DNA from: an uncultured Gammaproteobacteria bacterium
GTDB taxonomy: Bacteria > Pseudomonadota > Gammaproteobacteria > UBA9214
Direction: 5' to 3'
Assembly: GCA_963773065.1 (NCBI GenBank)
Contig: CAVYZN010000016.1
Location: 64,001 to 128,000 of the forward strand
DNA length: 64,000 nucleotides
In this document: in pieces, positions 1 through 50,440 of the stretch
Layout: each line of letters opens with the position of its first letter
Numbering within the stretch: the first letter of the stretch is position 1
The notes under the pieces: model-generated
What the model was told of the DNA's origin: nothing
Database searches by the model: none
The model's input: only the letters and a program-made list of their open reading frames with translations
Translations under genes and position numbers: made by a program

Positions 1-1
1 C

Positions 2-379
2 CTGGATGGCGAATCGCTCCTGGCGGCTTACTGGAAAAGCGTCGCCTGGCCGGGGCAGGGGGTTTTTATCGGCGAACCCCTGGCGGCTCCTTTCCGGGAT
101 GGCATCGCGGACAAACAGGACGGGAGCCGGCGTTGCCCGCCGCCGCGGGTCAGAACTGAGGCGATGCCCCACGGGAACCGGAGCGACGCGCTTGCAACGC
201 GGCTGTGCGCGGCCGGTCTCACGGACACGGAAGGGCCGGCGCGGCGACGGGACACAGGGCCGCGGCGGCCTTCGGTTCGGGTAACGTGCGAGCGGTTTTT
301 TGGGTTACCATCGCTCATCACTCGATGGAAATGGGACACAAGACGTGAAGCGATTCAAGAATATCCTGTTTGTTCATGA
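2..379 (+). CDS. C-terminal fragment of a TIGR03790-family protein (3' end uncertain)
   Basis: The frame from base 2 reads LDGESLLAAYWKSVAWPGQGVFIGEPLAAPF, the C-terminal motif I recall for this family; it runs off the window start. Confidence 0.55.
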   Translation: MDGESLLAAYWKSVAWPGQGVFIGEPLAAPFRDGIADKQDGSRRCPPPRVRTEAMPHGNRSDALATRLCAAGLTDTEGPARRRDTGPRRPSVRVTCERFFGLPSLITRWKWDTRREAIQEYPVCS

Positions 380-9832: not shown

Positions 9833-9944
9833 ATAGCGCCTGAAACAGGCTCATCTAGGAAGATCTCATCATGCTACAGCTAGGGGCAATGTGAGGTGCG
9901 GTCCAAATCCTACTTGGTCTTGGACTGTATGTCTGCTTCTGGCA

Positions 9945-10162: not shown

Positions 10163-10588
10163 GCCCGTTAGCGAAGTACGATGGCAGGATGGGAACGGCA
10201 AGTTATGCTGCAACCCGGTCATAACCGCTCCCGGTAGATATGTCTTCTTTCGTGCGCATTCAAGACATAAAACGGCGGCCTTCGGGTCGTCGGTTTATTT
10301 CAGCAGTAACTTGGCAATGGCCTGAAACCTTGCTATCCGTCTTCGTGTGTACGTTTATCCTTTACTTCCTGATTAGAGAAAGGGCCTACGCAGTTGACCC
10401 GATCGCTGCCATTGCACCGGCTCACACGCCTCCGCGAACTTAGACGGGCAAGCGAGTCATCTCCGCGCCGGATCGCCGCCCCTGCGCCACGACATGCGGC
10501 CAGGTAATCCCGGCGCGGCCGGCCAGGGTGTAGAATTTCTCATTACCTGTTCTAGAACGAGTAACTCAGATCGTGATCGGGGTGCGTA

Positions 10589-10839
10589 TATGGCAAGGCT
10601 AGTAATAGTGCTGGCGCTGATCGGGATTGCTTACTGGTATTGGTCAGGGCCTTATCAGAATTCTGCGAACACGCCTCCTGTAGACGATACGAAGCAAAAC
10701 GCCGAGATCATGGCGCGCTGTCTCGCGGACGAGAACTTCGCGGAATCAGACGATGTCAGGGCCCGGAGAAGACGCCGAAGAAGTGTGCGCGGATGAGAAC
10801 AGCCTCATTAAGATGGATGGGAAGTGGTATCACAGATGA
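10589..10839 (+). CDS. Small exported hypothetical protein, frameshifted
   Basis: MARLVIVLALIGIAYWYWSGPYQ..C..; a shifted frame gives DAEEVCADENSLIKMDGKWYHR*. Confidence 0.55.
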
Positions 10840-10840
10840 C

Positions 10841-10868
10841 GCGGCGGCCCTCGGGTCGCCGTTTTTTC
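10841..10868 (+). terminator. Rho-independent terminator
   Basis: CGGCGGCCC-TC-GGGTCGCCG hairpin followed by a T-run right after the stop; a similar hairpin lies at 10273-10300. Confidence 0.6.
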
Positions 10869-11167
10869 GCCCTATGTCTGGTTATGCGGCACAGTTGCCC
10901 TTCGCTGGTCATCCGTGTAGGTCAGAAGATGGCCGATCTACGACCTTCCTCCTCGCTCCGAGCACTTCGCCCGACGCCCGCAGTCACTCCCCGTAGAGTT
11001 CCCAGCAACCGTTCCCAAGGACGCAGTACCAGGTAACGGCAGGCGGGGGCTCAGAACTCAGAGCTCAGTGCGAAGGGCTAGGGGGAGGGTGTACGTCATA
11101 GGCAGAATGTCTGGAAGGTTACTGATGCCGGACATTCTGGTTCAGGGGGCTATCGTCAGCCATCGAC

Positions 11168-11309
11168 CCAGGCTGTGTAAAAACTCATTTTTTTGAAAGG
11201 CGCTCAGAGAGGCGACCTTACCAGACGCACCACGATCAACGATCTCATGTGAGGTAATGGTTTTGGGAACCCTGTTTTCGAGATCATTCGGAGTTTTTAC
11301 ACAGCCTGG
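11168..11309. mobile_element. MITE, 142 bp, with IS1182-like ends
   Basis: Perfect 19-bp IR CCAGGCTGTGTAAAAACTC / GAGTTTTTACACAGCCTGG; GACCCA on both sides. Confidence 0.75.
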
Positions 11310-11588
11310 ACCCAACCCGGACGTCCAGCATTTCGGGCTTCATGACGTGTTTGTACTGTAGTCGGACCTTTAGTATCAGGAGCACAGGGGTTATTGACTC
11401 TTCCTCGCCACTTATCCGCTACTATCATAAAAATAATTTAGCTTGAACAACTCATTCTCGGACAACTAGATTAATCACATGAAACCGGGCGTTTATCCGT
11501 CATAATAAACTTGAAAAAAAGGGGTATCGCTTATCCTATAGTTAGACTTAAGCAAATCATTTAATTCCGGTAACTGACGGAGGAAGTC

Positions 11589-11984
11589 ATGTACGCGATG
11601 AAACGCACTCTGACCTGTTTCCATTCGGCCCTGCTTAATTTAGCTTGTGCCTCATCAGTGCTCGCCGCAGAACAGGTACCAACCCAACCATATCCATGGC
11701 CGGGGTGGCACGCAATGCCTTGGCCAGCTTTCTGGTGGATATTTCCGCTCATGTTTTTCGTGATGATGATTGTGATGATCATTTTCATGATGAGAAGGGG
11801 GTGCATGGGCTGCATGTGGCGTGATCGTATGATGGATAGACCCGAATTTCGCGATGCCATGAAACGATCTTTGGGCGAACATTCAGAGTCCGCTCTGGAA
11901 ATACTGAATAAACGCTATGCAAAGGGTGAAATCGACACGAAAGAGTACGAAGAGAAAAAAGCTGCAATTACTCGCTCAGGGTAA
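11589..11984 (+). CDS. SHOCT-domain membrane protein
   Basis: Signal-like N-terminus, TM helix, SALEILNKRYAKGEIDTKEYEEKK; RBS GGAGG. Confidence 0.82.
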   Translation: MYAMKRTLTCFHSALLNLACASSVLAAEQVPTQPYPWPGWHAMPWPAFWWIFPLMFFVMMIVMIIFMMRRGCMGCMWRDRMMDRPEFRDAMKRSLGEHSESALEILNKRYAKGEIDTKEYEEKKAAITRSG

Positions 11985-12002
11985 CCTTTTTGTGGATATG
12001 TT

Positions 12003-12733: not shown

Positions 12734-15700
12734 ATGCTGCACATCTGCCGTTCCAATCGCGTCGAGTCACTGCTAGAGCGCCTGGCGGACCGGCTCGGCG
12801 AGGAGCCGCTTTCCTCGCCTTTCCTGCCCGAGGTGGTGGTGACGCCGAGCCCCGCTATGGCGCGCTGGGTCAATCTGCAACTCGCCGGCCGGCACGGGGT
12901 GGCGGCCAATTACCGCTATCCGCTGCCGGCCGCGTTCATCTGGCAGCTCGCGCGCGATCTGCTCGGCGATCTGCCCGATACCGACCCGCTCGCGAGCGAT
13001 GTCATGACCTGGAAGGTCTACGCGCTGCTGCCTGAACTGATTGAGGAGCCGGCCTTTGAATCCATCGCTCACTACCTGCAGCAGGATGCCGGTGGCCTGA
13101 AGCGTTTCCAGCTCGCCGGCCGGATCGCGGACGTCTTCGACCGTTACCAGTTCTACCGGCCGCAGCTGTTGCGTGACTGGGGTGCCGGCAAGGACGGACA
13201 GTGGCAGGCGGTGTTGTGGCGCCGGTTGACCCGCGGGATCACCCAGCACCGCCTCGCCGTCATCGCGCGCCTGCTGTCGCGCCTCCAGAAAAGAAGGGAA
13301 AAGGGGTCAGAGCCCTTTTCTGAACAGAGTGGCCTGACTGGTAATTTTATTTCGCCTGAAGAAAAGGGGTCTGACCCCTTTTTGCCGGAGCGCGTCAGCC
13401 TGTTCGCCATCTCCAGTCTGCCGCCGCTGTTCGTCGAGGTGCTGCACGCGCTCGCCGCGCATACCCGCATCGACCTCTACCTGCACAGTCCGACCGACCA
13501 GTTCTGGGCGGACCTGGTATCCCAGAAGACGCTGGCGCGCAAGCGTCTGGCTGAGCCCGAGGCCGCCGAGCTGTGGGAAACGGGTAACAGCCTGCTGGCC
13601 TCCTGGGGCCGCCAGGGGCAGGCCCTGCAGGATCTGTTGCTGATGCAGGAAACCCCGGCCACCGAGGAGGATGCCTTCAGCGCGCCCGAGACGGAGTCGC
13701 TGCTTGCGCATCTGCAGCGGGACATCTACACCCTGCGGCCCATGGCGGCCCCCGGCGAGCGGATGGCCGTCGAACCCGACGCTTCGCTGCAGGTGCATGT
13801 GTGTCACAGTCCGCAGCGGGAATGCCAGGTGCTGCACGATGGCCTGCTGGCGATGCTGGACGGCGACCCGGCACTGCGTCCCGAGGACATGCTGGTCATG
13901 GTGCCGGAGATCAGCCTCTATGCCCCCTACATCGAGGCCGTGTTCGAACAGGATGCGGAATCCGACCGGCCGTTCATTCCCTGGAACCTGTCGGATATCT
14001 CGCTGCGCGACGAGCATCCGCTGGTGCGGGTGTTCCTGCAGTTGCTGGACCTGCCGCACAGCCGTTTCAGCCACACGGAAATCCTGTCCTGCCTCGACGT
14101 GCCGGAGCTGGCCGGACGGTTCGGGCTGGACGGCGAGGCGCTGGCGCAGATCCGGGAATGGCTGGCAGAGGCCAGGCTGCGCTGGGGATTGAGCGGTGCG
14201 CACAAGCGGCAGTTCGGCCTGCCCGGCACGGAGGAGAACACCTGGGCGCAGGTCGAACGACGCCTGTTCGGCGGCTACGCCCTGGGCGAGGGCGAGCTGT
14301 TCGAAGACATCGCCCCGATTGCCGGCGTGGATGGCGCCCGGGGCGAAATCCTCGGCCGGTTCTGGCGGCTGCTGTCCTGTCTCATCGAGTATGCCGAGCG
14401 GCTGCGCCGCCCGCGCCGCGCCGGCGAGTGGCAGGAATGTCTGGGCCGCCTGCTCGATGATTTCTTCGGTGAACAGGAGGACGAGGAGGGCAGGATCCAG
14501 AAAATCCGCGATGCCCTGGCGGATCTGGCCGGACAGGCCGGCGGCCTGGACGAGACCCTGCCCGTTGCCCTGGTGCGTCACTGGCTGGAGCGGCAACTGG
14601 GCACGCAGACCCGTCACGGACGCTATTTCAGCGGCGGCGTGACCTTCTGCGGCATGCGCCCCATGCGCAGCCTGCCCTTCAAGGTGATCTGTGTGCTGGG
14701 ACTGCATGACCAGGCATTTCCGCGCCGCGAGCAGCCGGCCGAGTTCGACCTGATGCGCGAGCACTGGCGTCCCGGCGACCCGCGCAAGGGGGCCGAAGAC
14801 CGCTACCTGTTCCTGGAAACGCTGCTGTGCGCGCGGCAGGTCCTCTACCTCAGCTACGTCGGGCGCGACATCCGCAACAACAGCGAGCGCCAGCCCTCGG
14901 TGCTGCTGCGGGAACTGCTGGATTATATCGACCAGCAGTACGTGGATGCCGGTGGCGATGCCGGGGACCAGGCTCAGTGCGCGGCTGACGCGCGTGCATC
15001 CGCTGCAGCCCTTCAGTCGCGCGCAATTACCGCGGCGAGCCGCGCAGCTACGACGGCGACTGGTGTGCGGTGGCGCAGGCGATGCGGCAGCCGCTGCGGC
15101 CCGAACCGGCGGGCGCGGACTGGAACCGCACCCGGTTGCCCGCCGCCCCGGACACCCTGCGCACCGTCAGCCTCACGCAATTGCTGCGCTTCGTGCGCCA
15201 TCCGGTCAGGTACTTCGTGAATACGCGCCTGCAGGTCTACCTGCGGGAGGAGGCGCCGGGTGAAGATGACGAGGTGTTCAGCGCTGGATGCGCTGCAGAG
15301 CTTCAGCCTGAAACAGCGCCTGGTGGATGATTACCTCAAGGGACGGCCGACTCCCGCGCGGCAACTCAGTGCCGAGGGCATCCTGCCGCACGGGGCCTTC
15401 GCCGGTCTCGCCTGGCAGCAGGAGTCACTGAAAGTGCAGCCACTGACGCAGCGGCTCGCGGCCTACCGGGCGCACCCGCCGGAGCAACGGCTGGTCGACC
15501 TGCCATTCGAGAACGAGGCCGCGGGATCGCTCCGACTCGCGGGGCAGATCAAGGGCATTTACCCGGGGCCCGGTCTGCTGCGCTACCGGCCGGGTGCCCT
15601 CAAGGGGCCGGACATCCTGGCGCTGTGGCTGGAACACCTGGCCTGGTGCGCCGGTGATGGCGGCCGGCGACAAATGCAGCACCCTGCACGGGACGACCGG

Positions 15701-21541: not shown

Positions 21542-22405
21542 CTACCCCCGCTGCTTGAAAATCCAGACTTCATTCAGGCGGAGTGTTTCCTTGACCTCTT
21601 CGGCATGGGTTTGCGCTTCTTTTGCCGTCGCAAAGCCGGTGAGCTGTACGCGCCAGAACATCCGGCCTTTCACCTCGGCTTGGTTCTGCTCCACGGGGAC
21701 GCCGCGGTCGCGTGCGCTGGCCGCGAACCGTCCCGCCACCGCCTTGTTCGGGTCGGACAGCAAATTGATCACCCAAGGGCCCTTCTTGCCGCTCCCCTGC
21801 GCAAGAACCGCGTCGGTTGCGAGGGCGGTGGTAATCGGGATTGCTGGTTCTCCTTTGCGTGCCTCGACCGGTGTCTCCTTCACGGAATCCTGCGCCGCCG
21901 CGGTGTCACCCGCTGCCCCGCTGACCATGGTCACAGGTTGCGACTCGACGGGTGTGGACGCCGCCGCGGGTGTTTCCGCAAGCGCTCTCCTCACTCTGCC
22001 GGTGGCTTCCGTAGATTCGGGCGCGACATCGGCAGGCGACCGCGCAATGCCTGCCGCGGGCGCCTCGGAAGGGATGTCCACTTCCGTGATTGCCGTCGTC
22101 CCTTCCTCTGCTGCCCAGGCCGCGACGGTAGCCTGCCGCTGCTGCGAGGTGACCGAGGCGAGTTTGGCGTCGAGACCGGAAAATGCCTCGGTCAGCGCCC
22201 GTACGCGCGCATTCAGTGAGGTATATTTTCCCTCGAGCAGGCTGGCGGGAAAGGCCCAGGTCTTTACCTCGACCAACTCGCTTTCCAGTGCACTCAGCCG
22301 CTTGTTGATGTCGAAAATATAGAGATTGACGCCAACGGTAAGACAGATAACGACGATCAGGGAAAACAGCTCCAGATATTTCAATATGCGATTATTAATG
22401 GCCAA
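21542..22405 (-). CDS. SPOR-domain membrane-anchored protein
   Basis: N-terminal TM, coiled coil, A/T/P-rich linker, GPWVINLLS..WRVQLTGFATAKEA..VWI. Confidence 0.8.
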   Translation of the reverse strand: MAINNRILKYLELFSLIVVICLTVGVNLYIFDINKRLSALESELVEVKTWAFPASLLEGKYTSLNARVRALTEAFSGLDAKLASVTSQQRQATVAAWAAEEGTTAITEVDIPSEAPAAGIARSPADVAPESTEATGRVRRALAETPAAASTPVESQPVTMVSGAAGDTAAAQDSVKETPVEARKGEPAIPITTALATDAVLAQGSGKKGPWVINLLSDPNKAVAGRFAASARDRGVPVEQNQAEVKGRMFWRVQLTGFATAKEAQTHAEEVKETLRLNEVWIFKQRG

Positions 22406-22690
22406 CGGTATTTGCCCTTGAGTTGTGAGTCGATTGACGTCGGGTTCTTTCCGGATAGGTCAAGGCGCCCGGGGTGGCTGGAGTTCTGCAGGGCCGGTCT
22501 CTGTAGAGGAAGAGTCCTGCGTTTTCCGCTACCTCTATTACACAGGCAAGCATCATTCAAACAGGTACTGAAAACCCGGCCTTTGTGGATGCTCATTTTT
22601 CTGATTGGTACAGCAAAACAAGAACGACGGCCCGGCGGGCGGCGCTACGTTTAGGGATCGACATGGTGATGGCAATTGACAGTGCTGGCA

Positions 22691-22894
22691 TCACCATCTT
22701 TTCACTATCCGACAAAGTAATCTTGTGAACAGGGTTTCAGTCGCCGGGTGATTATAAACATGCTCCAGAGGTACCCATTCTGCCGAGATACTATTCAATC
22801 GCCGGTCTGGGAATCTTCGCCGATTGTGGGGATAGGCCTGCTCCTCCTTGGTGTCGAAGCTGCGCCTGTCTGTCAACTTCCTCCGGTCTCGCAT
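22691..22894 (-). CDS. Small hypothetical protein with DRR repeats
   Basis: MRDRRKLTDRR..NRRRFPDRRLN; GAGGG RBS. Confidence 0.5.
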   Translation of the reverse strand: MRDRRKLTDRRSFDTKEEQAYPHNRRRFPDRRLNSISAEWVPLEHVYNHPATETLFTRLLCRIVKRW

Positions 22895-23080
22895 CCCTCA
22901 TCCTGCATTCATGAGTTTTCAAGCGGAGGGATTCTATCAAATCACTGTCCTAGTGACTAACGCTTCTGATCTTCGAGGAGAACGTCGCATTGGGGTCACC
23001 AAATTTTCACCTCCAGCCCCCGCATTCGCGGGGTATTGGCTAGAATGACGGGTTTGGTCAGGGTATCACCTGACCCCGTG

Positions 23081-23398
23081 TCAGCCGCCTCTGTCGACCT
23101 CTTCCGATGGATTGTCCGGCAAGCGGGCATAGGGGTGGTCAATGGGCGTTTCCACATAGGCCTGGCGTGTCTTTTCGGATTCGAAATAAATGGTCAGATT
23201 CCCATCGACGATATAGGGGTGGCCTGATACGTTCTCGATATCCCGGTTGGTAATCGGATCAATGGTATTGATGAGATGGTCCGGCTCATGCAGCCGATGG
23301 CTTTGCTCCCGATCGCGAGGCAATGGATCCGAAGCGACCCAGTTGAGGTTTTCAATACCCTGAACCGGGGTACGTTGAGTAGGTGTCGAGATGGTCAT
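23081..23398 (-). CDS. YHS-like domain protein
   Basis: DPITNRDI..IYFESEKTRQAY; AAGGAG RBS. Confidence 0.65.
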   Translation of the reverse strand: MTISTPTQRTPVQGIENLNWVASDPLPRDREQSHRLHEPDHLINTIDPITNRDIENVSGHPYIVDGNLTIYFESEKTRQAYVETPIDHPYARLPDNPSEEVDRGG

Positions 23399-23517
23399 TG
23401 TAGTCTCCTTAACCTTATCGGTTGATCGAGTCGCCGAACGCGCCTGCTGCGCCTAGCGAACCTCGTTGTGTGTGTCAGGATGAGTGGCTGGCGGCTAGCC
23501 TGTTCAGGCGCCGACGA

Positions 23518-24030
23518 TCAGACGTGCAAGGCATCGACGCTCCAGCCTACCCCACCTGCCATGGCTTCAGGATGGTTCCGATGGACCATTGCCTCCACTT
23601 TGGCTACCTGCCAGACGGGCACATCGATCATCAGCAGTATCTCCCGGTGTTTCATCGCACTCTGGAATTCGGCCAGATGGACGTTGGGGACGCGCATGAC
23701 AAATTCCAGCCCCAACAGAAAAGATGCCAGCATCACTCCCGCCGGTATCGCTAGCCAAAACCAGGGTGCCTGCAGCAGCGCAAGCACCACCAGCGCACTT
23801 AATGCCATGAAAAACAGGGTCAGATTGCCGCCCCACAGATAATTCTCGATGCGTGCCCCAAGATCATCACGCTGCGTCGGCGAAGCGACGGGTAATCCAC
23901 CCACTTCACCACCGCGTCCCGCGATGGCATGCATAGAATTACGCTCGAATCCCCGCAATTCCAAGTCACTTACCAACGCTCGGGCATGTTCGCTATCGGG
24001 CGACAGAAAATAGAGACGTCGCTTAATCAT
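23518..24030 (-). CDS. Conserved membrane protein (DUF1269-like)
   Basis: MIKRRLYFLSPD, two TM helices, ILLMIDVP..HPEA..GG. Confidence 0.7.
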   Translation of the reverse strand: MIKRRLYFLSPDSEHARALVSDLELRGFERNSMHAIAGRGGEVGGLPVASPTQRDDLGARIENYLWGGNLTLFFMALSALVVLALLQAPWFWLAIPAGVMLASFLLGLEFVMRVPNVHLAEFQSAMKHREILLMIDVPVWQVAKVEAMVHRNHPEAMAGGVGWSVDALHV

Positions 24031-24299
24031 AGGCTCCTCGCTAGAACGGTCTGATGCTGGATCCCTCCAGCTCGCCGGCCGTGGGATGTTTACCCAACAT
24101 GTTCATCACGCCACGGATCTAATTCTTGGTACTTAATAAACATAGTAAACCTGAGTGTTTTAGTCAAGTATTATGCGCCGCTGACCGATTGCGTATTTTT
24201 CTACCAATTCGCGCCATGGCTCTTACTCTGAAGCTGAGAGTGCGTCAGCAGCCGACGGCCATCTCTTTGACGGGACAATCGGCGGACGTCCTGTAATCG

Positions 24300-24761
24300 C
24301 TACGCGTCCACATTGATGGGCAGGGCGGTGGTGTACTTCATCTGTTCCATGGCGAAACTCGAGGTGACATTGGATAGTTCGATGCGGTCGATCAGCTTCT
24401 TGTAAAACCGGTCGTAGGCCTCGATGCTGTCGACCGCGACACGCAGCAGGTAATCAATTTCACCGCTCATGCGATAAACCTCCATAACCTCCGGCAGGTT
24501 ACTGACCGCCTTGTCGAAGCGCGCTATCCATTCCCTGGTGTGCTGGTCGGTCTTGATCGCCACGAAGACCGTGACATCGGCGTTGACTTTTTTGGGGTCC
24601 AACAGCGCGACCCTGGCTCGAATGTAGCCCTCCGTTTCCAGTTTTTGAATCCGCTTCCAGCATGGCGTAACCGACAGGGGGATTTGCCCGGCAATTTGTT
24701 TAACTGTCAGGCTGGCATCTGTTTGGAGGAGATTCAGTATTTTCCTGTCAGTCGCATCCAT
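24300..24761 (-). CDS. Lrp/AsnC-family regulator (DecR/YbaO-like)
   Basis: DRKILNLLQ..LSVTPCWKRIQKLE, YRMSGEIDYLL, SSFAMEQMKYTTALP; AT-rich divergent promoter at 24762-24925. Confidence 0.9.
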   Translation of the reverse strand: MDATDRKILNLLQTDASLTVKQIAGQIPLSVTPCWKRIQKLETEGYIRARVALLDPKKVNADVTVFVAIKTDQHTREWIARFDKAVSNLPEVMEVYRMSGEIDYLLRVAVDSIEAYDRFYKKLIDRIELSNVTSSFAMEQMKYTTALPINVDA

Positions 24762-24925
24762 AGATAAATATCCTATTTATACGGATTATACAAATAATAT
24801 ATTTTCACAATAGCAGATACCCTGCGTATTATAATAATTATTTTCTACAGATAATAGAATATGGATAAAAACAATATAGACTGATATCTACCGTCGGCAG
24901 TTGACATTACGCTAGGAGAGGAACG

Positions 24926-25345
24926 ATGGAATCCGTCATGAATCCGCTGGAAATCACAGGATTACCGTCCAATGTCGGCAGTTGGAGCGCGGTCAGCATC
25001 CCCGGGTTTCTCATCGCGGTTCTCAACCGCTGGCAGAGACACTTGGGGAGACTGCCGGCGCGATTTGTGTTGGTCGCCTGCCCACAGGTGGAAGTCAATG
25101 CCGTGGGGGGTCTTCCGTCCCGGGTCAGGGAACTGACGAATCCGCGTCAGCGGTTGCAGCATTTTACCGGTTGTCACAAGCCCTATCTGGTCATATTCCT
25201 GGTGGGCGAGGATACTGAAGCCCGCCGTGAAGAAATCCAGAAATGGCTCTCGTGGTCTGAAGGCTATCAGGTGGAATTCACGGACGGGACTCTACGACTG
25301 CGTTTCATCGAAGCAATCGAGGAGCGTGACGACGTCGCCGCATAA
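24926..25345 (+). CDS. Hypothetical protein divergent from the Lrp regulator
   Basis: 139-aa ORF with a GGAGAGG RBS. Confidence 0.55.
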   Translation: MESVMNPLEITGLPSNVGSWSAVSIPGFLIAVLNRWQRHLGRLPARFVLVACPQVEVNAVGGLPSRVRELTNPRQRLQHFTGCHKPYLVIFLVGEDTEARREEIQKWLSWSEGYQVEFTDGTLRLRFIEAIEERDDVAA

Positions 25346-25741
25346 GGGCATGAGGGAAATGCGCGGGGCCGGTGACCGCCACGCGGGTTCGAACGGGAAC
25401 GCGATACCACCTCATGGCATCGAAGGAAAGCCGGCTTCATTCGGCCCATGCCATACCCGCGCAAGCGGGACAACCCCTCAGTAGCTTTGAGCAGCCGCAG
25501 ATAGGCTCGCACCGCGAATACTCAGAGTAGTTCGCGCACATCCCGCGCAAGATCAGTATTGTTTCGTCGCACCGGCGGGTCATAGCTGGAAATTCCACGC
25601 CAATGGGCTAATCTGACAGTTGTCTCTCGTGCGGTGACCACGGCCATACCCATGGTGCGAACGGCAACCGTGAACAGGCTCGATTGGCGGGAGACAGTCC
25701 GGGAATTACCTGCTACTGACTAACGTTCATGGAGAAGACTT

Positions 25742-26011
25742 ATGATGATGACACGCAAGAAAATGACGGGCCTGCTGCTGGCTACAACCGCCGCCGCGCT
25801 GTTTAGCACCGCGAACATCACGGCAGCCGCAGAGGAAACCGCGAAAAGCGCGGAGGTGAAGTGCATGGGCATCAATTCCTGCAAGGGTACTTCCGAGTGC
25901 GCGAGCGCAACCAATTCCTGCAAGGGACATAATAGCTGCAAGGGCCAGGGTTGGGTGCACGCGAGCAAGGAGGACTGCACCGCCAAGGGCGGCAGCGTAA
26001 TCGAAAAGTAA
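25742..26011 (+). CDS. Bufferin-type (BufA2-like) RiPP precursor / metallophore
   Basis: Signal peptide plus a 6-Cys core [25 protein letters not shown]. Confidence 0.85.
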
Positions 26012-26020
26012 TACCGCTAC

Positions 26021-26055
26021 AAATGCCAGGGCGCCGTCCGGCTCCCTGGCGTTTT
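26021..26055 (+). terminator. Hairpin/terminator between precursor and maturase
   Basis: GCCAGGG..CCCTGGC followed by GTTTT. Confidence 0.55.
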
Positions 26056-26199
26056 CAACCAACGGTGTACCAACGACATAATCGGGCCGGTCGCACCGGA
26101 GCGCAGGCGCGGCGGAGCGGATCAGCGTTGCCGCTGCCTGCCGGCCGGCGCTACCATGTCCATCAGTACCCCGCACCCGCGCGGCGTACCATCAGGAAC

Positions 26200-27075
26200 A
26201 TGATGGCGAAGTCAGAGCAAGGCCAAACCCGATTCCCGGATCTCGGCTTCGGGCTGGGTTTGCGCACGCAGCACTATCAGGAAATCCTGGACAGCGCTCC
26301 GCCCGTGGACTGGTTCGAGGCGCTGACGGAGAACTATCTCGTCCCCGGCGGCAAACCGCTCCATTATCTGGAGCAGGTCCGCGCCCGTTATCCGCTCGTT
26401 CTGCACGGGGTATCCCTGTCCATCGGCAGTTCCGATCCCCTCAATTGGGACTATCTGCGGCAGCTCAAGGCGCTGGCGGCCCGCATCGAGCCGATCTGGA
26501 TCTCCGATCATTTGTGTTGGACGGGGCTTAACGGGCGCAACCTGCATGATCTCCTGCCCTTGCCCTACACGGAGGAGGCCGTGCTCCACGTGAGCGATCG
26601 CATCCGGGCGGTGCAGGATTTCCTCGGCCGCCGCCTGCTGATCGAGAACGTATCGAGTTACCTCACCTATACCGATTCCTGCATGAGCGAGTGGGAGTTC
26701 CTGAGCGCGGTCGCCGGGCGCGCCGACTGCCTGATACTGCTCGACATCAACAACATCTACGTCAGCAGTTTCAACCATGAATTCGATCCGCTGGAGTACC
26801 TGCGGGGAGTACCCGTGGAGCGGGTACAGCAGTTCCACATCGCCGGGCATCGCAATCACGGCGACTATATCGTCGATACGCACGACGAACCGGTGATCGA
26901 TCCGGTGTGGCGACTGTACGCCGACGCCTGCCGGCGCTTCGGACCGGTGTCCACCATGATCGAACGGGATGACAACATCCCCCCGCTCGCGCAATTGCTG
27001 GAGGAGCTCGATCGGGCGCGCCGCATCGCGGCCGGCATGGCCGTGCAGGCTCCGGAACGGGCAGGCGCCACATGA
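26200..27075 (+). CDS. DUF692 multinuclear non-heme iron oxidase (MNIO, BufB-like)
   Basis: [53 protein letters not shown]. Confidence 0.93.
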
Positions 27076-27860
27076 GCAGCGGCAGTCTGCGCGAGCTGCA
27101 GGAACAGTTCCAGTCCCATCTGCTGCATGGCGATCCCCGCGTGCAGGATCGCATCATCGGCACACCCCGGGTGGACGCGCACACGCGGCTCGCGATCTAT
27201 GGCGATGCCTATCGCCTGCGATTGCTGGAGGCATTGAGGACTGACTTTCCCGCGCTGCATACGCTCGCGGGTGACGCGGAATTCGAACGCATCGGGCGCG
27301 CGTACATCGACGCCCATCCCTCCGGGCACTTCTCGATCCGTTATTTCGGCCGCCGGCTCGGCGAGTTCTTGCGGCGGGACGAGCGCTGCCGGCGGATCCC
27401 GGTGTTTGCGGAGATGGCCGATTTCGAGTGGGCCTTGGGTTTGTCCTTCGATGCCCCCGACAGCGGGGTGATCGGCGTGGAGGACGTCGCCGCGATTCCA
27501 GCCGCGGCGTGGGCCGGGATGCGCATCGGCCTGCATCCCTCGCTGCAGCGGCTGGATCTGATCTGGAACGTGCCCGGACTCTGGAATGCGATTGATGAGG
27601 AGCAGCCGCCACAGGCGCCGGTCGCCGCCGACTGCCCGCTTGCCTGGATCATCTGGCGCCGGGAATTGCGCACGCTTTTCCGTTCCCTGCCGGTGGATGA
27701 AGCCTGGGCGATCGATTTCCTGGGGCAAGGACACGGCTTCGCGGAGATGTGCGAAGGGTTGTGCGAGTGGGTCGACGCGGCAGTGGCGGGAGCGCAGGCG
27801 GCGCTGTTCATGCGCCGCTGGGTGCAGGACGGACTCATCGCCCGCATCGATCTGGATTAA
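27072..27860 (+). CDS. DUF2063 MNIO partner (BufC-like)
   Basis: [38 protein letters not shown]; ATGA overlap. Confidence 0.88.
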
Positions 27861-27908: not shown

Positions 27909-28526
27909 ATGTGGACGTGGTCGCTCAACTGGGGAGAAGTCTCGCCGCACATCGTGGTGGGAACCTGTCCGATGGCGCCGGAGGATGTCGGGCGCATCCA
28001 GGCGGGGGCGGGGGTATCCGCCGTCCTGTCCCTGCAGCATGACGACTGTCTGGCGTACTGGGGCATCGACTATGACGCCATGCACAACCAGGGATCGCGG
28101 CTCGGTCTCACCATGAGACGGTGCCCGCTCCGTGATTTCGACATCCCGAACCAGCGTGAGCGGCTGCCGCATGCCGTTGCGGCGCTGACCCGCCTGCGCT
28201 CGGAGGGACACCGCATCTACGTGCATTGCACCGCGGGTTTGGGTCGGGCGCCACTGACGGTATTGGCTTACCTCACCTGGGTGGAGGGTCAGCCGCCCGA
28301 GTGCGCGATACGCACGATTCATAACGCGCGGCCAGGCGCGGTGCCCGCCTGGGAGGCTTATCATGGGTGCCGCGCAGACCTCGTCGCGAGATACCGTTCG
28401 ATGATCGAGCGGCGGGCCTATGAACTGCATGAAAAAGGCGGCCCAAGAACCGCGCTCGATAACTGGGTCGATGCCGAAACCGGGGTCATCCGATCCGCGC
28501 TCATGGAATTATCCCTGCTCGGATAA
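27909..28526 (+). CDS. Dual-specificity phosphatase, LSF2/SEX4 glucan-phosphatase-like, with a DUF2934-like tail
   Basis: VHCTAGLGRAP (CX5R), YWGID, RDFD, LPHAV; C-terminal IERRAYEL..DNWVDAE. Confidence 0.85.
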   Translation: MWTWSLNWGEVSPHIVVGTCPMAPEDVGRIQAGAGVSAVLSLQHDDCLAYWGIDYDAMHNQGSRLGLTMRRCPLRDFDIPNQRERLPHAVAALTRLRSEGHRIYVHCTAGLGRAPLTVLAYLTWVEGQPPECAIRTIHNARPGAVPAWEAYHGCRADLVARYRSMIERRAYELHEKGGPRTALDNWVDAETGVIRSALMELSLLG

Positions 28527-28537: not shown

Positions 28538-30142
28538 TCATTGAAACAGGGATTTCAATTTGTCCAGGGTCCGCTTTGAGACATCTGAAACTGCGTTGGT
28601 GCTCTCGAGTTCCAACAGGCGTTTGTTGTCCGGATCAACCGCCAGTCCCCGATCTCGATAGACTTGCGCCTTGCCGTAATGGAACTGGTCGAGCTCCCGT
28701 TGCGCCAGGTCGGCGTAGCGATCGGCGATCTGCGCCACGCCCGTTAACGCCTCCTCGTTATCGGGATCCTCTGCCAGGATCCTCTGGTAATAGTAATACG
28801 CGTTGTTCATTTCCGGTGTGGTGAGACGGTAGTCATCCAGCGCCTGCCTGGCCAGCAACAAGTCATTCTCACGTTGCAGTGTCAGGTCATCGCTCAGGCG
28901 CAGCACAACCTTTTGTGTTGTTGCCTTACCAGCCGGCAAACTCACGGTTTGCTCTTCCTCCGTCATCATCAACGGTTCTGAGATGAACAATTTTAAGGTG
29001 ACAGTCAACAATAGCAACATCACCGCGCCGGTTAGCGCCCAGCGGATGCGGACGTGGTCAGCAAGGATTTCCTGCAACTTCCGGAATGCGACTCGCGACC
29101 GGTGACCGAGCTGGTAAACAGTATCCGCACCGGCTCTGTCGTGATCTATCGGCAATCGTTCCCTGCGTTGTCCTACTTCCACGGTAACTGCTCCCTGCGT
29201 TACCCTACCTCCTACATCCCTGTAGTCGTGCATTTTTGCAGTCATACGAGCGGCGATCCTGGCGGCGATGACTTTTATCCGCGCCCATGGCCTGGAATTG
29301 CGCAGGTCCCGGACAGCACCGGCTACTGCCGCTGCAGCGACGCCCCGCGGCCGGTGCTGCCGAAGCTCCCGGATGATCCCGACCATTTCCCCGGCGGTGG
29401 CGTAGCGGTCGTCAGGCGCTTTCGCGACCATCCGTTCGATCAACTCCTGATAACGGCTCAGCTCCGCCGGCAAAGCGGGACAAGGCCTGGTCAGGTGGGC
29501 CATGATGGTTTCGATCGGAGAGTCGCCCTGAAATGGCTTAACGCCCGTCAGCATCTCATAGAGAATGATGCCGAGCCCGTAGATGTCGGCGCGCCCGTCC
29601 AATGGTTTGCATTCGGCCTGTTCCGGGCTGAGGTAATACGGGCTGCCCAGCGCGGTGCTGTCCAGCGTCAGCCGGATGTCATTCTCCAGGTGCTTGGCGA
29701 TCCCGAAATCGGTGAGTACCGGGGTCCCGTCCTTGCGAAACAGGATGTTCGCCGGCTTGATGTCGCGGTGAATGATGTCTCTGCGGTGCAGGAAATCCAG
29801 GCAGCCGCCGATGATCTCCGCCAGCTCGAGCGCCGCCTCGATGTTCATGCCCTTGCTGATCCGCTTCTCCAGGTCGCCATCCTCGAGGTATTCCATGGAT
29901 ATGTAGTGCCGCTCGCCGACGACGCCGATATCGTGGATGGTGATGATGTTGCGGTGATTGAGCGAGGCGATGATCCGGCCCTCGTTGCGGAACCGGGTGG
30001 ACTGCAGGGGGTTATCGATATTCTTCAGCAGTTTGAGGGCGACCTGCCGCTCCAGGGATTCCTGTATGGCCAGGTGCACGGATGCCATGCCGCCATCGGC
30101 GATGGGTCGTATGATTTTGTAGCCGGGTATCTGCAGATCCAT
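28538..30142 (-). CDS. Hanks-type Ser/Thr protein kinase, membrane-anchored
   Basis: VALKLL, HRDIKPANIL, DFGIAK, SPEQ; TM helix and TPR-like periplasmic tail. Confidence 0.92.
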   Translation of the reverse strand: MDLQIPGYKIIRPIADGGMASVHLAIQESLERQVALKLLKNIDNPLQSTRFRNEGRIIASLNHRNIITIHDIGVVGERHYISMEYLEDGDLEKRISKGMNIEAALELAEIIGGCLDFLHRRDIIHRDIKPANILFRKDGTPVLTDFGIAKHLENDIRLTLDSTALGSPYYLSPEQAECKPLDGRADIYGLGIILYEMLTGVKPFQGDSPIETIMAHLTRPCPALPAELSRYQELIERMVAKAPDDRYATAGEMVGIIRELRQHRPRGVAAAAVAGAVRDLRNSRPWARIKVIAARIAARMTAKMHDYRDVGGRVTQGAVTVEVGQRRERLPIDHDRAGADTVYQLGHRSRVAFRKLQEILADHVRIRWALTGAVMLLLLTVTLKLFISEPLMMTEEEQTVSLPAGKATTQKVVLRLSDDLTLQRENDLLLARQALDDYRLTTPEMNNAYYYYQRILAEDPDNEEALTGVAQIADRYADLAQRELDQFHYGKAQVYRDRGLAVDPDNKRLLELESTNAVSDVSKRTLDKLKSLFQ

Positions 30143-41974: not shown

Positions 41975-42255
41975 TTGACCGTTATGTAGAGGAACAGAGT
42001 TTGAACCAGAGGTAAGACACGCCACGATTGCGAAGGCGAAGACAACACGATGCCCAACAGGTAAGACCGACGTCAGGAAACTCCGTTATATGTAGTGGCC
42101 AATAAGGCCGACACCCTATGAGAAACCCGGCGTGCGCATTGCATTATGGCTCGAGCCAAAGCATGGCTCACTCAGAGGCCGAATAGATACACGCAATCCT
42201 TACCCCTAATGGCAAAGTCAGATTTTCCCCTTGCAAAACGGGTGGAGTCCATAGA
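41975..42255 (+). mobile_element. Orphan right end and non-coding region of an IS1111-type element
   Basis: ACAGGTAAGACCG..GAGGCCGAATAGATA..GCAATC..CTTGCAAAACGGGTGGAGTCCAT-AGA resembles IS1111 right ends as I recall them; no transposase. Confidence 0.55.
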
Positions 42256-42368
42256 TACCCAAACGGGTAGGGCGCTTCAGTCAGCGGGGCGCAATATGGT
42301 CTTCGATGATTGATAGAGAGGATAAATACATTGGTTGAGTGGCCAGAAGTAAAAATAGCGGGTGAATT

Positions 42369-42566
42369 GTGAGCCTGATCATAAGACAGACGGGCAGTCG
42401 TCGTTTCGATTTACCTGCCGAATTTCCGTTAGCGGATAGTCAGGGAGTTTTTGTGATTCAAGATCGAAGACGATTGCCTGACCGACGAACGGCAATGCAT
42501 GACCTTAACGATCTAAAGGACATACTCTCGAAATTAGTTGGAAACATAGAGAACTCTTGGGGATAG
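42369..42566 (+). CDS. Small hypothetical protein with a DRR motif
   Basis: FPLADSQGVFVIQDRRRLPDRR. Confidence 0.5.
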   Translation: MSLIIRQTGSRRFDLPAEFPLADSQGVFVIQDRRRLPDRRTAMHDLNDLKDILSKLVGNIENSWG

Positions 42567-42872
42567 CCCACGTTTTGGTGTACTCGGATGGCCGTTGCGA
42601 GTATTGAATTGACAGGAATCAAGCTCTTTAATACGTATTTCTACGTATACATAACCACGTAATTACCAGCACCTACTCTGAAATTCTCATTGTGTATTAT
42701 TTCGCACGGGGATAATAATTCCCTTGCCTGACTTTAGGTAATTACCTGAAACAAGAAGTCCGAACCGGCAGGTAGGGTAAAGAACCCAGTCGTTAAGGAA
42801 TACCCCCGCCACGATAGAGGGCGAGTCTTTAACCGGCGGAAATAACAACACGAGAATCTAAGGAGTTCCCCC

Positions 42873-43037
42873 ATGCGTATGTCACGTCTGTATGGCGATT
42901 CGCTGGACGCGGCAGATGAAGCGCTCGGCGTTTCGCGGGAGACTGCCAAGACACACTTGACCCACGTGTTCCAGAAGACGGGTACGCACCGTTAGACTGA
43001 GATCGCCGCGCTCCTGTTGCGCTTGCCCGGAGCCTGA
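42873..43037 (+). pseudogene. LuxR-type HTH remnant
   Basis: GDSLDAADEALGVSRETAKTHLTHVFQKTGTHR*TEIAALLLRLP. Confidence 0.65.
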
Positions 43038-43068
43038 GTCTCGACGTCATACCTTCCCAAGGAGAGTC

Positions 43069-44240
43069 ATGCCCAAGATGCTGCACAGCGACGACCTCTC
43101 GGCCCTGAACGGCACGATCTATGACGCCGGCGCCGACCCTCGGCGATGGCCCGAGTGTCTGAGAGCACTGGCGCAAGCGGTTGGGTCGGAGCAGGCGCTC
43201 ATGCTTCACTCGGAGAAGGATTCAACACCCGGTCAGGAACTCTTCACGACGGGCCTCGACCTCGACGTGATCGCGCGTTGGAATGGTTGCAAGGATCACG
43301 TCGACGTATGGCTGCAGCACGTTTTCGAGGTTCCCGCCAACGCCGCCTATTTCTCCACCGATATCGTCAACTCCGATGTCTTGCACGGATCCGGGTTCCA
43401 CGCCGATATCTTGCGCCCGCTCGGCATCGAATACAGCCTGGGTGGCGTTACGGAGAACGGCTCGCTCCGTACGGGCTTTTTCGCCGTATACCGGAGCGCA
43501 CGCGCGGGCCCGTACACGGAGCGGGACAAGAACCTCTACCGCCTGCTGGTTCCCCACGTACGCCGCGCGCTGACATTAGGACGACAACTTGCACTCGTCC
43601 ACGACCGGGAGATGACCTTTCGCCAGGCCCTGGATTGCGCGCCCTTTGGCGTCATCGGCGTAGGCGCGAACGGCCGCGCACTCGTGGTCAATGCGGAGGC
43701 TAACCGGATTCTGTCCGAAGGGGACGGCATCACGCTGCGCTCCGATCGGATCAGGTTGTCGATCCACGAACAACAACTCGCGTTGGAGCGAATGGTCGCC
43801 GCGGCGATCCGGACCGCCGGCGGACGGTGGGTTCCGCAGGTGGATCATTGAGCGTTCCACGGCCGTCAGGCAAGCGCTCCTACCAGATCCTTATTTGCCC
43901 GCTTCGAGCAGAATCCGACGGACCTTGGCTGGATGTCGGCGGTGTCTGTCTCGTGCTGATGCACGATCCGGAACAGCACGCGAAACCCTCAGCCGTCTTG
44001 CTGCGTCGATGGTACGGCTTGACGGCGGCCGAAGCCCGCCTTTGCGCCGCACTGATGGAGTGCGGATCGATCGATGAAGTCGTCGAGCGGTTGGGGATCA
44101 GCCGCAACACCGCAAAGACTCATCTGGCACACGTGTTTGCCAAGGTGGGGGTCCGGTCGCAGACCGAGCTGCTGCGTGATCTGGCGCTGGGGCTGGCGCA
44201 TTCGGGATTCCTTTCTCGACAACACGCTGGCAGTCCATAG
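43069..44240 (+). CDS. PAS/LuxR-type HTH regulator, frameshift near 43830
   Basis: IYDAGADPRRW, LVPHVRRAL, YGLTAAEARL..LGISRNTAKTHLAHVFAKVG. Confidence 0.85.
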
Positions 44241-44370
44241 CATTTGGGATTGAGGAGACAGCGTTCCTCCCTGACCAGCCTGTGAAGAATCGATGACTGA
44301 CATCCTATCCCATTAACGTCGTTGGGGAATAGGTATACTGTCCCCTGAAAAGTAAAGCTGAAGATCCCCG

Positions 44371-44655
44371 ATGAAGATGAACCGCTACCACAATGTGTTC
44401 GATGCGCTGGAAGACGATCCGGCGATTGCCGAGAACCTGAAAATCCGTGCGCAATTGATGAATGCGCTGACCCGGTATATCGAGAAGCGGGGACTCACCC
44501 AGGCGAAAGCCGCCGAACTGTTCGAGGTCAACCAGCCTCGAATCAGTGATCTCGTACGGGGCAAGATCGAGCGCTTCATCATCGATATGCTGGTCAACAT
44601 GCTGGCCCGTGCCGGGAAGCGCCTCAACGTGAGGGTATCCAACCAGGCCGCCTGA
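44371..44655 (+). CDS. HigA-like XRE HTH antitoxin (orphan)
   Basis: NVFDAL..NLKIRAQLM..LTQAKAA..QPRISDLVRGKI. Confidence 0.85.
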   Translation: MKMNRYHNVFDALEDDPAIAENLKIRAQLMNALTRYIEKRGLTQAKAAELFEVNQPRISDLVRGKIERFIIDMLVNMLARAGKRLNVRVSNQAA

Positions 44656-44851
44656 AAAACGTCAGGGATAGACCACCTTTTCCGGCTTCGGGAACTGGCG
44701 AAAAATAAATCTGGCCCTGGAGGGTGGCGGGTTCCAAAACTGTTGATGTGTAAGCATGTTAGAAAACCGCAGGGAAGCCCCGGCGTCTGACCCAGGTTTC
44801 CCATGACATCAAGTACTGTATGGGCAGCGATGTGGAGAGCAGGGAGAAGCG

Positions 44852-45160
44852 ATGATTCTGGAAGACGGTTTCGGAAACAAGGTGCGGCTTACAGACGAAC
44901 GGCTTGCCCACATTCTGGATCATCCCGAAATGCGGGGAATGGAGAAGGAAATCGAGCGGGTACTGCGCGAGCCGCAGCGCGTTCGGCGGTCGCGCACGGA
45001 CGAAGCTGTGCGGCTGTTTTATGGGTTCTACGCCCAGACATTGGTGGGTGGCAAATGGTTGTGCGTTGTGGTTAAGTACCTCACGAACGATACTTTTGTG
45101 ATCACCGCTTACCTGACCGACAAACCGAAAGCCGGAGAAGACCTATGGCCGAAAAAGTGA
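44852..45160 (+). CDS. Putative RelE/BrnT-fold toxin (DUF4258-like)
   Basis: VRLTDERLAHILDHPEM..VVVK..FVITAYLT; overlaps the DUF2283 gene. Confidence 0.7.
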   Translation: MILEDGFGNKVRLTDERLAHILDHPEMRGMEKEIERVLREPQRVRRSRTDEAVRLFYGFYAQTLVGGKWLCVVVKYLTNDTFVITAYLTDKPKAGEDLWPKK

Positions 45161-45354
45161 AAGTGTGGTTCGATGTGGAGGCGGATTACCTCGAAGTTCA
45201 GTTTCGAGAAGGCGTGGGCTATATGAAGGAAACCGCCCACGATGCCGTGATGGAACGGGTGGATATGCAAGGTAATGTGCTCGGGTTCAGCATCCTCGGC
45301 GTGAGCCGGTTCCGGAAGGATAAGCCACTGGAGGCGGAACTGACTGCGACGTGA
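45145..45354 (+). CDS. DUF2283 putative antitoxin
   Basis: KVWFDVEADYLEVQF..D.QGNVLGFSIL. Confidence 0.8.
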   Translation: MAEKVKVWFDVEADYLEVQFREGVGYMKETAHDAVMERVDMQGNVLGFSILGVSRFRKDKPLEAELTAT

Positions 45355-45453
45355 ACCGTCACGTCTCCCCCTTGAAGGTTTGACCGGGAGCAATGACATA
45401 AAAACGTGAGATTTAGTTTCTGGGGATAGTTACGGAAAATGAATCTATCACGT

Positions 45454-45639
45454 TCAATCACCACGGCCCAACAACTCGGCCTTGACCTGTTCATGCGGGA
45501 TGGTGCGGCCCGCCTCGATATCGGCCAGCCCTTCCTCGATCTTCTGCTTCACATACAGTTCGTACATGATGTCGTCCCAGGTCGCCTGATCGGGCAGGCG
45601 GTCAATGATCTGCCGGGCGGCGTCTTTGGCGCTTTGCAT
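45454..45639 (-). CDS. Small antitoxin-like protein (ParE-partner type); no toxin gene follows
   Basis: IDRLPDQATWDDIMYELYVKQKIEEGLADIEAGRTIPHEQVK. Confidence 0.75.
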   Translation of the reverse strand: MQSAKDAARQIIDRLPDQATWDDIMYELYVKQKIEEGLADIEAGRTIPHEQVKAELLGRGD

Positions 45640-45709
45640 GGTCTGGGTTCTCCATCGTTCTCTCGTTTAGCCGCTGGTCATTTAGCGGGGAATTGCGGGA
45701 ACAGTATAC

Positions 45710-45952
45710 CTAAGACGCCTTCTTAAATCGCTCCAGGCCATCGAGGATGAAGACTCGGATCAAAACTTGGTACGGAATCCCATGCTTCTCCGCGACAGCC
45801 TTGAGTTCCTGAATCGTCGTCTCATCGAGAGCAACGCTGGTTGGCCTTTTGGGTGAATGCTTAAAGCGCTTCATTGCGGCCAGAATCTTGTTGGAATCCA
45901 GCTCGACAGGAGCCTCATAGGTTTTCAGCGATTTTACGTAGGATTTCTTCAT
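45710..45952 (-). CDS. CopG/BrnA-type antitoxin
   Basis: TSVALD..LKAVAEKHGIPYQVLIR. Confidence 0.8.
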   Translation of the reverse strand: MKKSYVKSLKTYEAPVELDSNKILAAMKRFKHSPKRPTSVALDETTIQELKAVAEKHGIPYQVLIRVFILDGLERFKKAS

Positions 45953-50395: not shown

Positions 50396-50440
50396 CCAGT
50401 TAGTATCGTGGTTAAGTACGTCACGAAAGAAAAAGTAGAA

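Follow-up and report, generated by a model that had tools for sequence, protein, structure and literature searches.

P0001, a bacterial member of the SEX4/LSF-type phosphatase branch and a candidate glucan phosphatase with a DUF2934-like tail

In plants the breakdown of starch is governed by the reversible addition of phosphate to storage glucans, and a failure of this process leads to Lafora disease in humans; could a bacterium possess an enzyme of the same kind? The question is raised by a gene, here called P0001, in a 64,000-nucleotide stretch (hereafter the window) of contig CAVYZN010000016.1 from an uncultured gammaproteobacterium (GenBank GCA_963773065.1; genome G000). An earlier note, made from the sequence alone, had read the gene as a bacterial homologue of the plant starch phosphatases LSF2 and SEX4 with a DUF2934-like tail. 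The open reading frame (ORF) is present, encodes 205 amino acids (Table 1), and contains all the stretches quoted from its translation. We find that P0001 is a bacterial protein in the SEX4/LSF-type branch of the fold that dual-specificity phosphatases (DSPs) share, with solid homology, and suggest that its substrate may be phosphate esters on alpha-glucans.

Kinship with the plant enzymes

The gene product is cytoplasmic and stands alone, a cysteine-dependent phosphatase with the dual-specificity fold. Pfam places it in DSPc (PF00782, 39.8 bits against a cut-off of 33.5) and, more weakly, in two bacterial DSP-PTPase families, and detects no carbohydrate-binding module (CBM). No NCBIfam model covers the family (27 bits, where the cut-off is 505), and the ESM Atlas returns generic DSP clusters, mostly bacterial, together with 'phosphoglucan phosphatase chloroplastic-like' at 0.87. 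Cys107 in the protein tyrosine phosphatase (PTP) loop HCTAGLGR, together with Arg113 and Asp76, implies standard two-step PTP chemistry. Asp76 lies 31 residues ahead of Cys107, and a general-acid Asp motif about 30 residues upstream of the PTP loop is described in PMC5779698; this Asp is invariant across 129/129 aligned rows, and the C, G and R of the loop are invariant or nearly so.

When all PDB chains were searched with phmmer, LSF2 (4kyq) was the best sequence match (E 1e-26, query residues 6-158), followed by SEX4 (1.1e-22) and LSF1 (1.6e-17); an ancestral-type PTP (3.7e-10), laforin (1e-8) and then archaeal and human PTPs and DSPs came next. Given the drop of seven orders of magnitude in E after LSF1, the parallel with LSF2 drawn in the earlier note is real and far beyond chance.

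The AlphaFold2 model of P0001 is confident (pLDDT 97.3, pTM 0.93, no low-confidence segment) and ranks LSF2, SEX4 and laforin above generic phosphatases. In a Foldseek search of the PDB the top eight rows are all LSF2, SEX4 or laforin chains (laforin at 2.3e-10), with PTPMT1 (8e-9), archaeal PTPs and DUSPs below them. Structural alignment with VIA-align, run on Foldseek's top 994 chains, gave a Z of at least 5 for 641 of the 994, the listed ones being PTP/DSP-fold phosphatases. LSF2 reached a Z of 25.3 with a root-mean-square deviation of 2.0 over 181 residues (model 1..204 on LSF2 81..282), SEX4 reached 24.3 and 23.8 (model 1..205 on SEX4 89..378) and laforin 22.1 and 19.5, while all chains beyond these three stayed at 19.2 or less and most were aligned only to about model residue 160. 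P0001 is closer in sequence and structure to SEX4, LSF2 and LSF1 than to any other solved phosphatase.

LSF2 and SEX4 were also the only structures aligned through the tail to their own C-terminus. Because VIA-align pairs the model as far as LSF2 residue 282 and SEX4 residue 378, the tail of P0001, as modelled, takes the structural place of the LSF2 C-terminal motif (the CT motif named in the S1 Fig legend of PMC5779698) and of the motif that follows CBM48 in SEX4. The earlier note had called this tail DUF2934-like. In P0001 itself the match to DUF2934 (PF11154) is below threshold (E 0.008, 16.2 bits against a gathering cut-off of 22), and in the family it is real: PF11154 matches 18 of 105 members at E <= 0.001 (best 4.1e-8), and the relative P0123 reaches 25.7 bits. 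LSF2-type rows, unlike these members, gave no PF11154 match at E <= 1e-4 when scanned. Judged by such profile matches, the tail is a divergent DUF2934, and the description in the earlier note is fair. A full-text literature search returned nothing on DUF2934 function. Our family alignment (A1) comprises P0001 and 104 relatives of 180-262 aa, taken as every second of 120 close matches inside that length window plus short representatives.

In a word-indexed search restricted to lengths of 112-359 aa, 600 relatives score E <= 0.001; the best 120 of these are 57-94% identical to P0001 and 181-244 aa long, and the names among those listed are 'hypothetical', 'atypical dual specificity phosphatase' and 'dual specificity protein phosphatase family protein'. 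An exhaustive search of 1.84 billion representatives gave 1854 proteins at E <= 0.001; a threshold of 1e-10 left 490 of them and one of 1e-30 left 69. A pattern scan of GTDB species genomes confirmed 24 loci, carried by Gammaproteobacteria metagenome-assembled genomes (MAGs), Candidatus Thiodiazotropha, Chromatiales, Methylococcaceae and Thioalkalivibrio denitrificans ALJD, as well as by Desulfobacterales and Desulfobacteraceae MAGs and an Olavius symbiont. When the class of the host genome was sampled evenly, a match at E <= 1e-20 turned up in 6 of the 301 genomes. Two distant homologues from the same class, L040 (genome G153) and L041 (G191), are 32-38% identical, have no tail and both lie near hemE (URO-D); after the former come genes for an FGGY kinase, a glycerophosphodiesterase and an FAD oxidoreductase.

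Eukaryotes contribute longer forms. Among the best 150 representatives, 71 have at least 250 aa, and Pfam finds CBM48 (AMPK1_CBM) in six of these and a CP12 motif in one; a cluster look-up places the long forms in green-lineage eukaryotes (Scenedesmus, Pedinophyceae, Spirogloea, Flechtneria). A 648-aa Scenedesmus protein, P0125, has the order DSP-CBM48-DSP, with two near-identical SEX4-type phosphatase domains around one glycogen-binding module.

Kinship of this degree does not make P0001 an LSF2 orthologue, and it is not one. For the phylogeny, rows were cut to the domain with the A1 profile and kept if they covered profile positions from 20 or lower through 150 or higher. The first tree held 129 rows, namely the query, every sixth of the 120 close matches (20) and 108 rows that come from 107 of the 150 representatives; 43 representatives were partial and were left out. 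This quick IQ-TREE tree splits the rows in two (support 98): on one side LSF1-, SEX4- and LSF2-type rows stand together (95) with short sequences of about 160 aa, and on the other are the query's family of about 200 aa, more short sequences and a 44-row algal long-form group. A careful tree of 56 rows, picked to represent the groups after the first tree was seen, supports the main split, the LSF1+SEX4+LSF2 group and the algal group (100/98 each) and the query subfamily (99/100), and inside LSF1+SEX4+LSF2 the LSF2 rows form their own group (100/99). Taken in the sense of orthology, the claim of an LSF2 homologue fails, P0001 lying across a 100/98 branch from LSF1+SEX4+LSF2; a joint clade of the query subfamily and LSF2, a group named after the tree had been seen, costs 98 log-likelihood units and is rejected (approximately unbiased test, p 1.9e-6). 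Both trees are unrooted and contain no laforin or generic DSP sequence.

The nearest eukaryotic kin of P0001 are instead found in the algal DSP clade (44 rows, among them P0155 and P0187; E 1e-37 and below, 36-44% identity), which lies on the same side of the main split and aligns to query residues 2 to about 196, tail included. Its members include Pedinophyceae and the streptophyte alga Spirogloea, one Spirogloea cluster ending in a CP12 motif, and P0155 scores 1e-37 to the query and 1e-15 to LSF2. According to PMC5779698, a second, uncharacterised DSP of Ostreococcus tauri scores 2e-14 to LSF2, and by this sequence measure it may belong to the same clade. Of the named short rows, one from an Acidiferrobacterales MAG falls to the plant enzymes' side of the split and one from an Armatimonadota MAG to the query's, and most of the unlabelled, metagenomic short rows are presumably bacterial. 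In the unrooted tree bacterial sequences flank the plant SEX4/LSF2/LSF1 group and its algal sister clade, which leaves open a bacterial origin of the plant family.

The aromatic channel and a candidate glucan substrate

What does the active site say about the substrate? PMC5779698 describes the aromatic channel of LSF2 as Tyr83, Tyr85, Tyr135, Trp136 and Phe162, and two further glucan-contact sites, SBS2 (Arg153, Met155, Arg157, Trp180, Arg280, Gly281, Thr262) and SBS3 (Lys245, Leu256, Phe261, Glu268); in PMC12892837, Gly230 together with Trp136 is said to set C3 specificity. We transferred the Arabidopsis numbering via an offset onto the land-plant LSF2 orthologue P0261 (1.9e-116 to 4kyq), in which Y83, Y85, Y135, W136, D161, F162, C193, R199, G230 and F261 stand at the expected places. 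By sequence alignment, four of the five channel positions hold aromatic residues that are near-invariant across the 20 rows of the query subfamily: Y85 becomes W2 (20/20; MAFFT), Y135 becomes Y50 (17/20 Y, 3/20 W), and W136 and F162 become W51 and F77 (20/20 each). W4 and W8 are likewise 20/20, W8 being aligned to a conserved LSF2 Tyr.

The residues that the earlier note had seen as kept, YW and DFD, do align as it said, Y50 and W51 with LSF2 Y135 and W136, and D76, F77 and D78 with the segment holding D161 and F162. Its substitution of an N-terminal WTW for the YEY of LSF2 stands for one residue, W2, which MAFFT pairs with Y85 through a two-residue gap; Y83 is unmatched, as the protein starts there, and the phmmer alignment starts at residue 6. 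The CTAGLGR loop is identical to that of SEX4- and LSF2-type rows, and it would fit what we take to be the glucan-phosphatase signature, C-zeta-AG-psi-GR. Sequence, fold and active-site residues together uphold the description of P0001 as a bacterial relative of the plant enzymes.

On sequence and model grounds, the best-supported reading of its substrate, and one that we hold tentatively and at somewhat less than even confidence, is that P0001 is a glucan phosphatase acting on phosphate esters of alpha-glucans. An alpha-glucan chain, glycogen or malto-oligosaccharide, would be held across a shallow active site, as in the CBM-less LSF2, lined by the invariant aromatics W2, Y50, W51 and F77 and perhaps W4 and W8, and phosphate monoesters on its glucose units would be hydrolysed there. 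The enzyme could in this way clear stray or regulatory phosphate from glycogen and let phosphorylases and debranching enzymes proceed.

A search of the host genome (3.84 Mb, 91% complete) finds a single GT5 glycogen synthase, along with two genes of about 850-880 aa that resemble alpha-glucan phosphorylase. GT5 glycogen synthase is present in 25/26 carrier genomes of the family against 163/300 genomes of the class sample (one-sided Fisher p 5e-6 for 25/26 against 159/296), and a control gene, PhaC_N, is not enriched (6/26 against 66/300); G248 was unscored in the class sample, and to a small extent the counts of 163 and 66 depend on genomes marked as unpublished (G296, G141, G039). Carriers were the genomes of loci L007-L028 together with G000, G077, G172 and G202; left out were L029, which shares its genome with L019, L030, a 48-residue match, and the distant homologues in G153 and G191.

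Several observations weigh against a glucan substrate. The genomes in the co-occurrence test are related, so not independent, a single control gene was used, and the background comes from one class while about ten of the carriers are Desulfobacterales-type MAGs. A PF01326 search of the 91%-complete host genome returned no gene resembling the glucan, water dikinase or phosphoglucan, water dikinase (GWD, PWD) of plants, the part of the genome search suggested by the earlier note that came out negative. P0001 falls outside the plant glucan-phosphatase group in the tree, and its algal kin have A-L in place of Y-W, a CTAGINR loop and long extensions at both termini. The channel residue Tyr83 is unmatched; the Gly230 site is Val145 (20/20 in the subfamily by MAFFT; A144 in the phmmer alignment); and the SBS2 and SBS3 residues have changed (R153 to T68, M155 to R70, R157 to C72, K245 to A160, L256 to R169, F261 to H174), the sole one kept being E268 (E190; 12 E and 7 Q in the 20 rows). 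No CBM fusion was found among longer relatives, where the search returned only one protein, P0122; a negative of this kind is weak evidence of absence. Around the gene, an all-against-all BLAST of ORFs within 6-8 kb at 21 loci found no neighbour family conserved beyond the synteny with one relative, L007, and Pfam found glycogen genes in 0/106 neighbour ORFs within 3.2 kb at 20 related loci.

The missing SBS2 and SBS3 need not disqualify P0001. OsttaDSP, the LSF2 orthologue of O. tauri, is like it CBM-less, keeps the channel and has lost SBS2 and SBS3, and is active on amylopectin as PMC5779698 describes it. It is, unlike P0001, a eukaryotic, plastid-targeted member of the LSF2 group, compared here by its published description only, and by analogy it offers a precedent that the channel alone can suffice.

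No dikinase partner that would supply the glucan phosphate was found in the host genome. Five PF01326 matches in two PPDK_N genes of the host genome were considered as GWD-like candidates and rejected, the genes being read as ordinary PpsA (817 aa) and pyruvate phosphate dikinase (934 aa). One locus of this genome (G000:C6:188902-194042) has the phosphoenolpyruvate synthase gene, the 817-aa frame, and 39 nt after it, in the same orientation, a gene of 884 aa that resembles alpha-glucan phosphorylase; a dikinase adjoining a glucan phosphorylase is an unusual pairing. Animal glycogen, as PMC13011383 reports, is phosphorylated without GWD by an agent that is unknown. Reversible glycogen phosphorylation in this bacterium, which the earlier note had raised, is something that we infer from glycogen genes that are present and co-occur, with neither a dikinase partner nor genomic linkage.

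Neighbouring genes and rival substrates

Could P0001 instead be a protein phosphatase, acting on phosphotyrosine and/or phosphoserine and phosphothreonine and possibly opposing a Hanks-type kinase such as the one that adjoins it? The family assignments in Pfam and the relatives' database names, 'protein-tyrosine phosphatase' and 'dual specificity protein phosphatase family protein', lean this way, as do the convergent Ser/Thr kinase (Table 1) and the lack of glucan-related neighbours at the 20 loci. The kinase, however, is not a conserved partner. Pfam found protein kinases in 0/106 neighbour ORFs within 3.2 kb at the 20 related loci, and neither a protein kinase nor a glycogen gene in 32 ORFs around four same-class homologues. 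In L007, whose phosphatase is intact and 75% identical, the kinase is a remnant at 13376-13564, with residues 30-60 and 495-534 joined, beyond acrAB and about 5 kb away; a tblastn search of the kinase against L002-L030 recovered this remnant only, and a kinase-phosphatase pair was rejected as a general explanation. Protein DSPs and PTPs also rank far lower than LSF2 in sequence (3.7e-10 or worse against 1e-26) and in structure (Z of 19.2 or less against 25.3), and the four invariant tryptophans near the active-site entrance would fit sugar stacking better than peptide binding. We consider a protein substrate rather unlikely.

Table 1. Features of the phosphatase gene and its neighbours (positions in the window)
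Feature	Position	Strand	Basis or remark
Whole phosphatase gene P0001, 205 codons + stop	27909..28526	+	ORF list, translation, Pfam, PDB matches, model
N-terminal Trp-rich segment W2-T-W4-S-L-N-W8	27912..27932	+	Clade residue table, VIA alignment
Y50-W51, counterpart of LSF2 Tyr135-Trp136 (aromatic channel)	28056..28061	+	phmmer alignment, subfamily table
D76-F77, D-loop general-acid Asp and Phe, counterpart of LSF2 Asp161-Phe162	28134..28139	+	Alignment
PTP loop H106-C107-T-A-G-L-G-R113 (HCX5R; nucleophile Cys107, Arg113)	28224..28247	+	Translation; aligned to LSF2 Cys193..Arg199
A144-V145-P146, site of LSF2 Gly230 (SEX4 Phe235 region)	28338..28346	+	Alignments
C-terminal tail, residues 159-205, helices 163-175 and 182-204, divergent DUF2934	28383..28523	+	PF11154 scans, pLDDT 91-99, VIA-align
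89-aa Cys-rich peptide, signal-peptide-like start	25742-26011	+	Read by eye
BufB MNIO maturase	26236-27075	+	NF050167, 388 bits against a cut-off of 310
DUF2063/HvfC-like gene	27072-27860	+	Ends 49 nt before phosphatase
Hanks-type Ser/Thr kinase, 534 aa, kinase domain residues 8-248, long C-terminal region	28538-30142	-	Convergent, 11 nt past phosphatase stop

A second rival holds that the likeness to LSF2 reflects ancestry only and that the substrate is another non-protein phosphate ester: a phospholipid head group, as for PTPMT1, a nucleic-acid 5' phosphate, or some other phosphorylated sugar or polysaccharide. PTPMT1 is the next fold class in Foldseek after the glucan phosphatases, and a PTPMT1-like phosphatidylglycerophosphate (PGP) phosphatase is reported from a bacterium in PMC3576122. 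The separate clade of P0001, the CTAGINR loop of its algal members, which are predicted DSPs of uncharacterised specificity, the genes of glycerol kinase type, glycerophosphodiesterase and FAD oxidoreductase beside one distant same-class homologue, and the lack of a phosphoglucan-making dikinase in the host genome would all agree with it. Phosphoinositide and PGP phosphatases, though, have a Lys or Arg inside the PTP loop, and CTAGLGR holds no such basic residue. PTPMT1 (Z 17.8) and a baculovirus RNA phosphatase (Z 17.5) lie within the generic crowd of structures, the aromatic channel of LSF2 is largely kept, and glycogen synthase co-occurs with the family. Such a substrate seems to us unlikely, slightly more so than a protein.

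It is very improbable that the gene was recently transferred or is decaying and has no role at present, or that it is a eukaryotic contaminant. Its distribution is patchy (6/301), and the high best-segment identity of 54-67% between Gammaproteobacteria and Desulfobacterales MAGs suggests lateral spread, but the frame and its catalytic residues are intact and invariant, and the 600 relatives and the synteny common to the window and L007 also count against this reading. On either side of the gene lie typical bacterial genes, BufB and AcrB, and on its 145-kb contig the local GC content matches the surroundings.

Directly upstream of the phosphatase lies a cluster (25742-27860, + strand) of the bufferin type, for ribosomally synthesized and post-translationally modified peptides, and a simple consensus scan found no promoter-like or terminator-like site between its DUF2063 gene and the phosphatase; beyond the kinase, acrB and then acrA follow on the strand opposite to the phosphatase. 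Among the 21 loci compared this synteny is shared by L007 alone. A functional link to the cluster was considered and set aside: the adjacency occurs in the window, in L007 and, by implication, in P0122, and is not seen at the other 19 loci, which reads as a lineage-specific arrangement. P0122 is a 464-aa metagenomic gene call in which DUF2063 runs into a phosphatase, 85-86% identical, of which the final 150 residues are present; this points to a third close relative with the same BufC-phosphatase adjacency and either a frame problem or a miscall. An operon or other functional linkage was likewise rejected for the family, there being no shared neighbour family beyond L007 and no theme among Pfam matches.

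One apparent bacterial CBM fusion, a 631-aa frame in G202 (L004), proved to be a high-GC read-through of a stand-alone gene. One member of A1 gave a weak CBM48 match (E 8.3e-5), and a stricter follow-up scan did not identify that member. The GC content of the window falls to 0.50-0.56 at 8001-12000, 22001-26000, 42001-46000, 50001-52000 and 56001-58000, against about 0.60-0.69 elsewhere; these stretches may be islands or differently composed genes.

Known glucan phosphatases and bacterial glycogen

Set beside the characterised enzymes, P0001 most resembles LSF2 of the Arabidopsis chloroplast (4KYQ/4KYR), with which it shares a DSP domain followed by C-terminal helices, the absence of a CBM, the HC(T/S)AGLGR loop, the D-F of the D-loop and the Y-W pair; it differs in having no transit peptide and no Tyr83, in Val at the site of Gly230 and in the loss of SBS2 and SBS3. 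SEX4 (3NME/4PYH) has the same CTAGLGR loop and a C-terminal motif to which the tail of P0001 is aligned up to residue 378, but carries CBM48 between the DSP domain and that motif, and Phe replaces W51 in SEX4-type rows. Laforin (EPM2A; 4RKK/4R30), from animals and protists, is third in the fold ranking and acts on glycogen, the polymer that bacteria store; its sequence similarity to P0001 is weak (E 1e-8), and it differs further in its N-terminal CBM20 and in being a dimer, as described in PMC9254107.

The earlier note knew glucan phosphatases from eukaryotes only, in agreement with PMC2714694, where the basis given is that a phosphatase domain and a CBM are not combined in any prokaryotic protein. 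That eukaryote-only view rests on a search for DSP and CBM within one protein and predates the understanding of the CBM-less LSF2. PMC13011383 states that bacteria lack laforin, raises the question of whether bacterial glycogen is phosphorylated, and gives the glycogen-phosphorylating agent as unknown. Our own literature search, which covered few subscription papers, found no report of a bacterial SEX4/LSF-type or glucan phosphatase. The fuller proposal, that the family is the first bacterial glucan (glycogen) phosphatase, CBM-less and LSF2-style with a DUF2934 tail acting as its C-terminal motif, is possible but doubtful.

If it is true, some sulfur-cycling Gammaproteobacteria and Desulfobacterales would carry covalently phosphorylated glycogen, made by an unknown agent other than GWD, and the family could help to find the unknown glycogen-phosphorylating agent. 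DUF2934 would gain a first structural role through a tail that acts as a C-terminal motif. The family also bears on the origin of the plant starch phosphatases. Whether bacterial glycogen is phosphorylated becomes directly testable with this conserved bacterial family, whose active site and C-terminal motif resemble those of LSF2, as P0001 is small and soluble-looking and a cultivated carrier exists, Thioalkalivibrio denitrificans.

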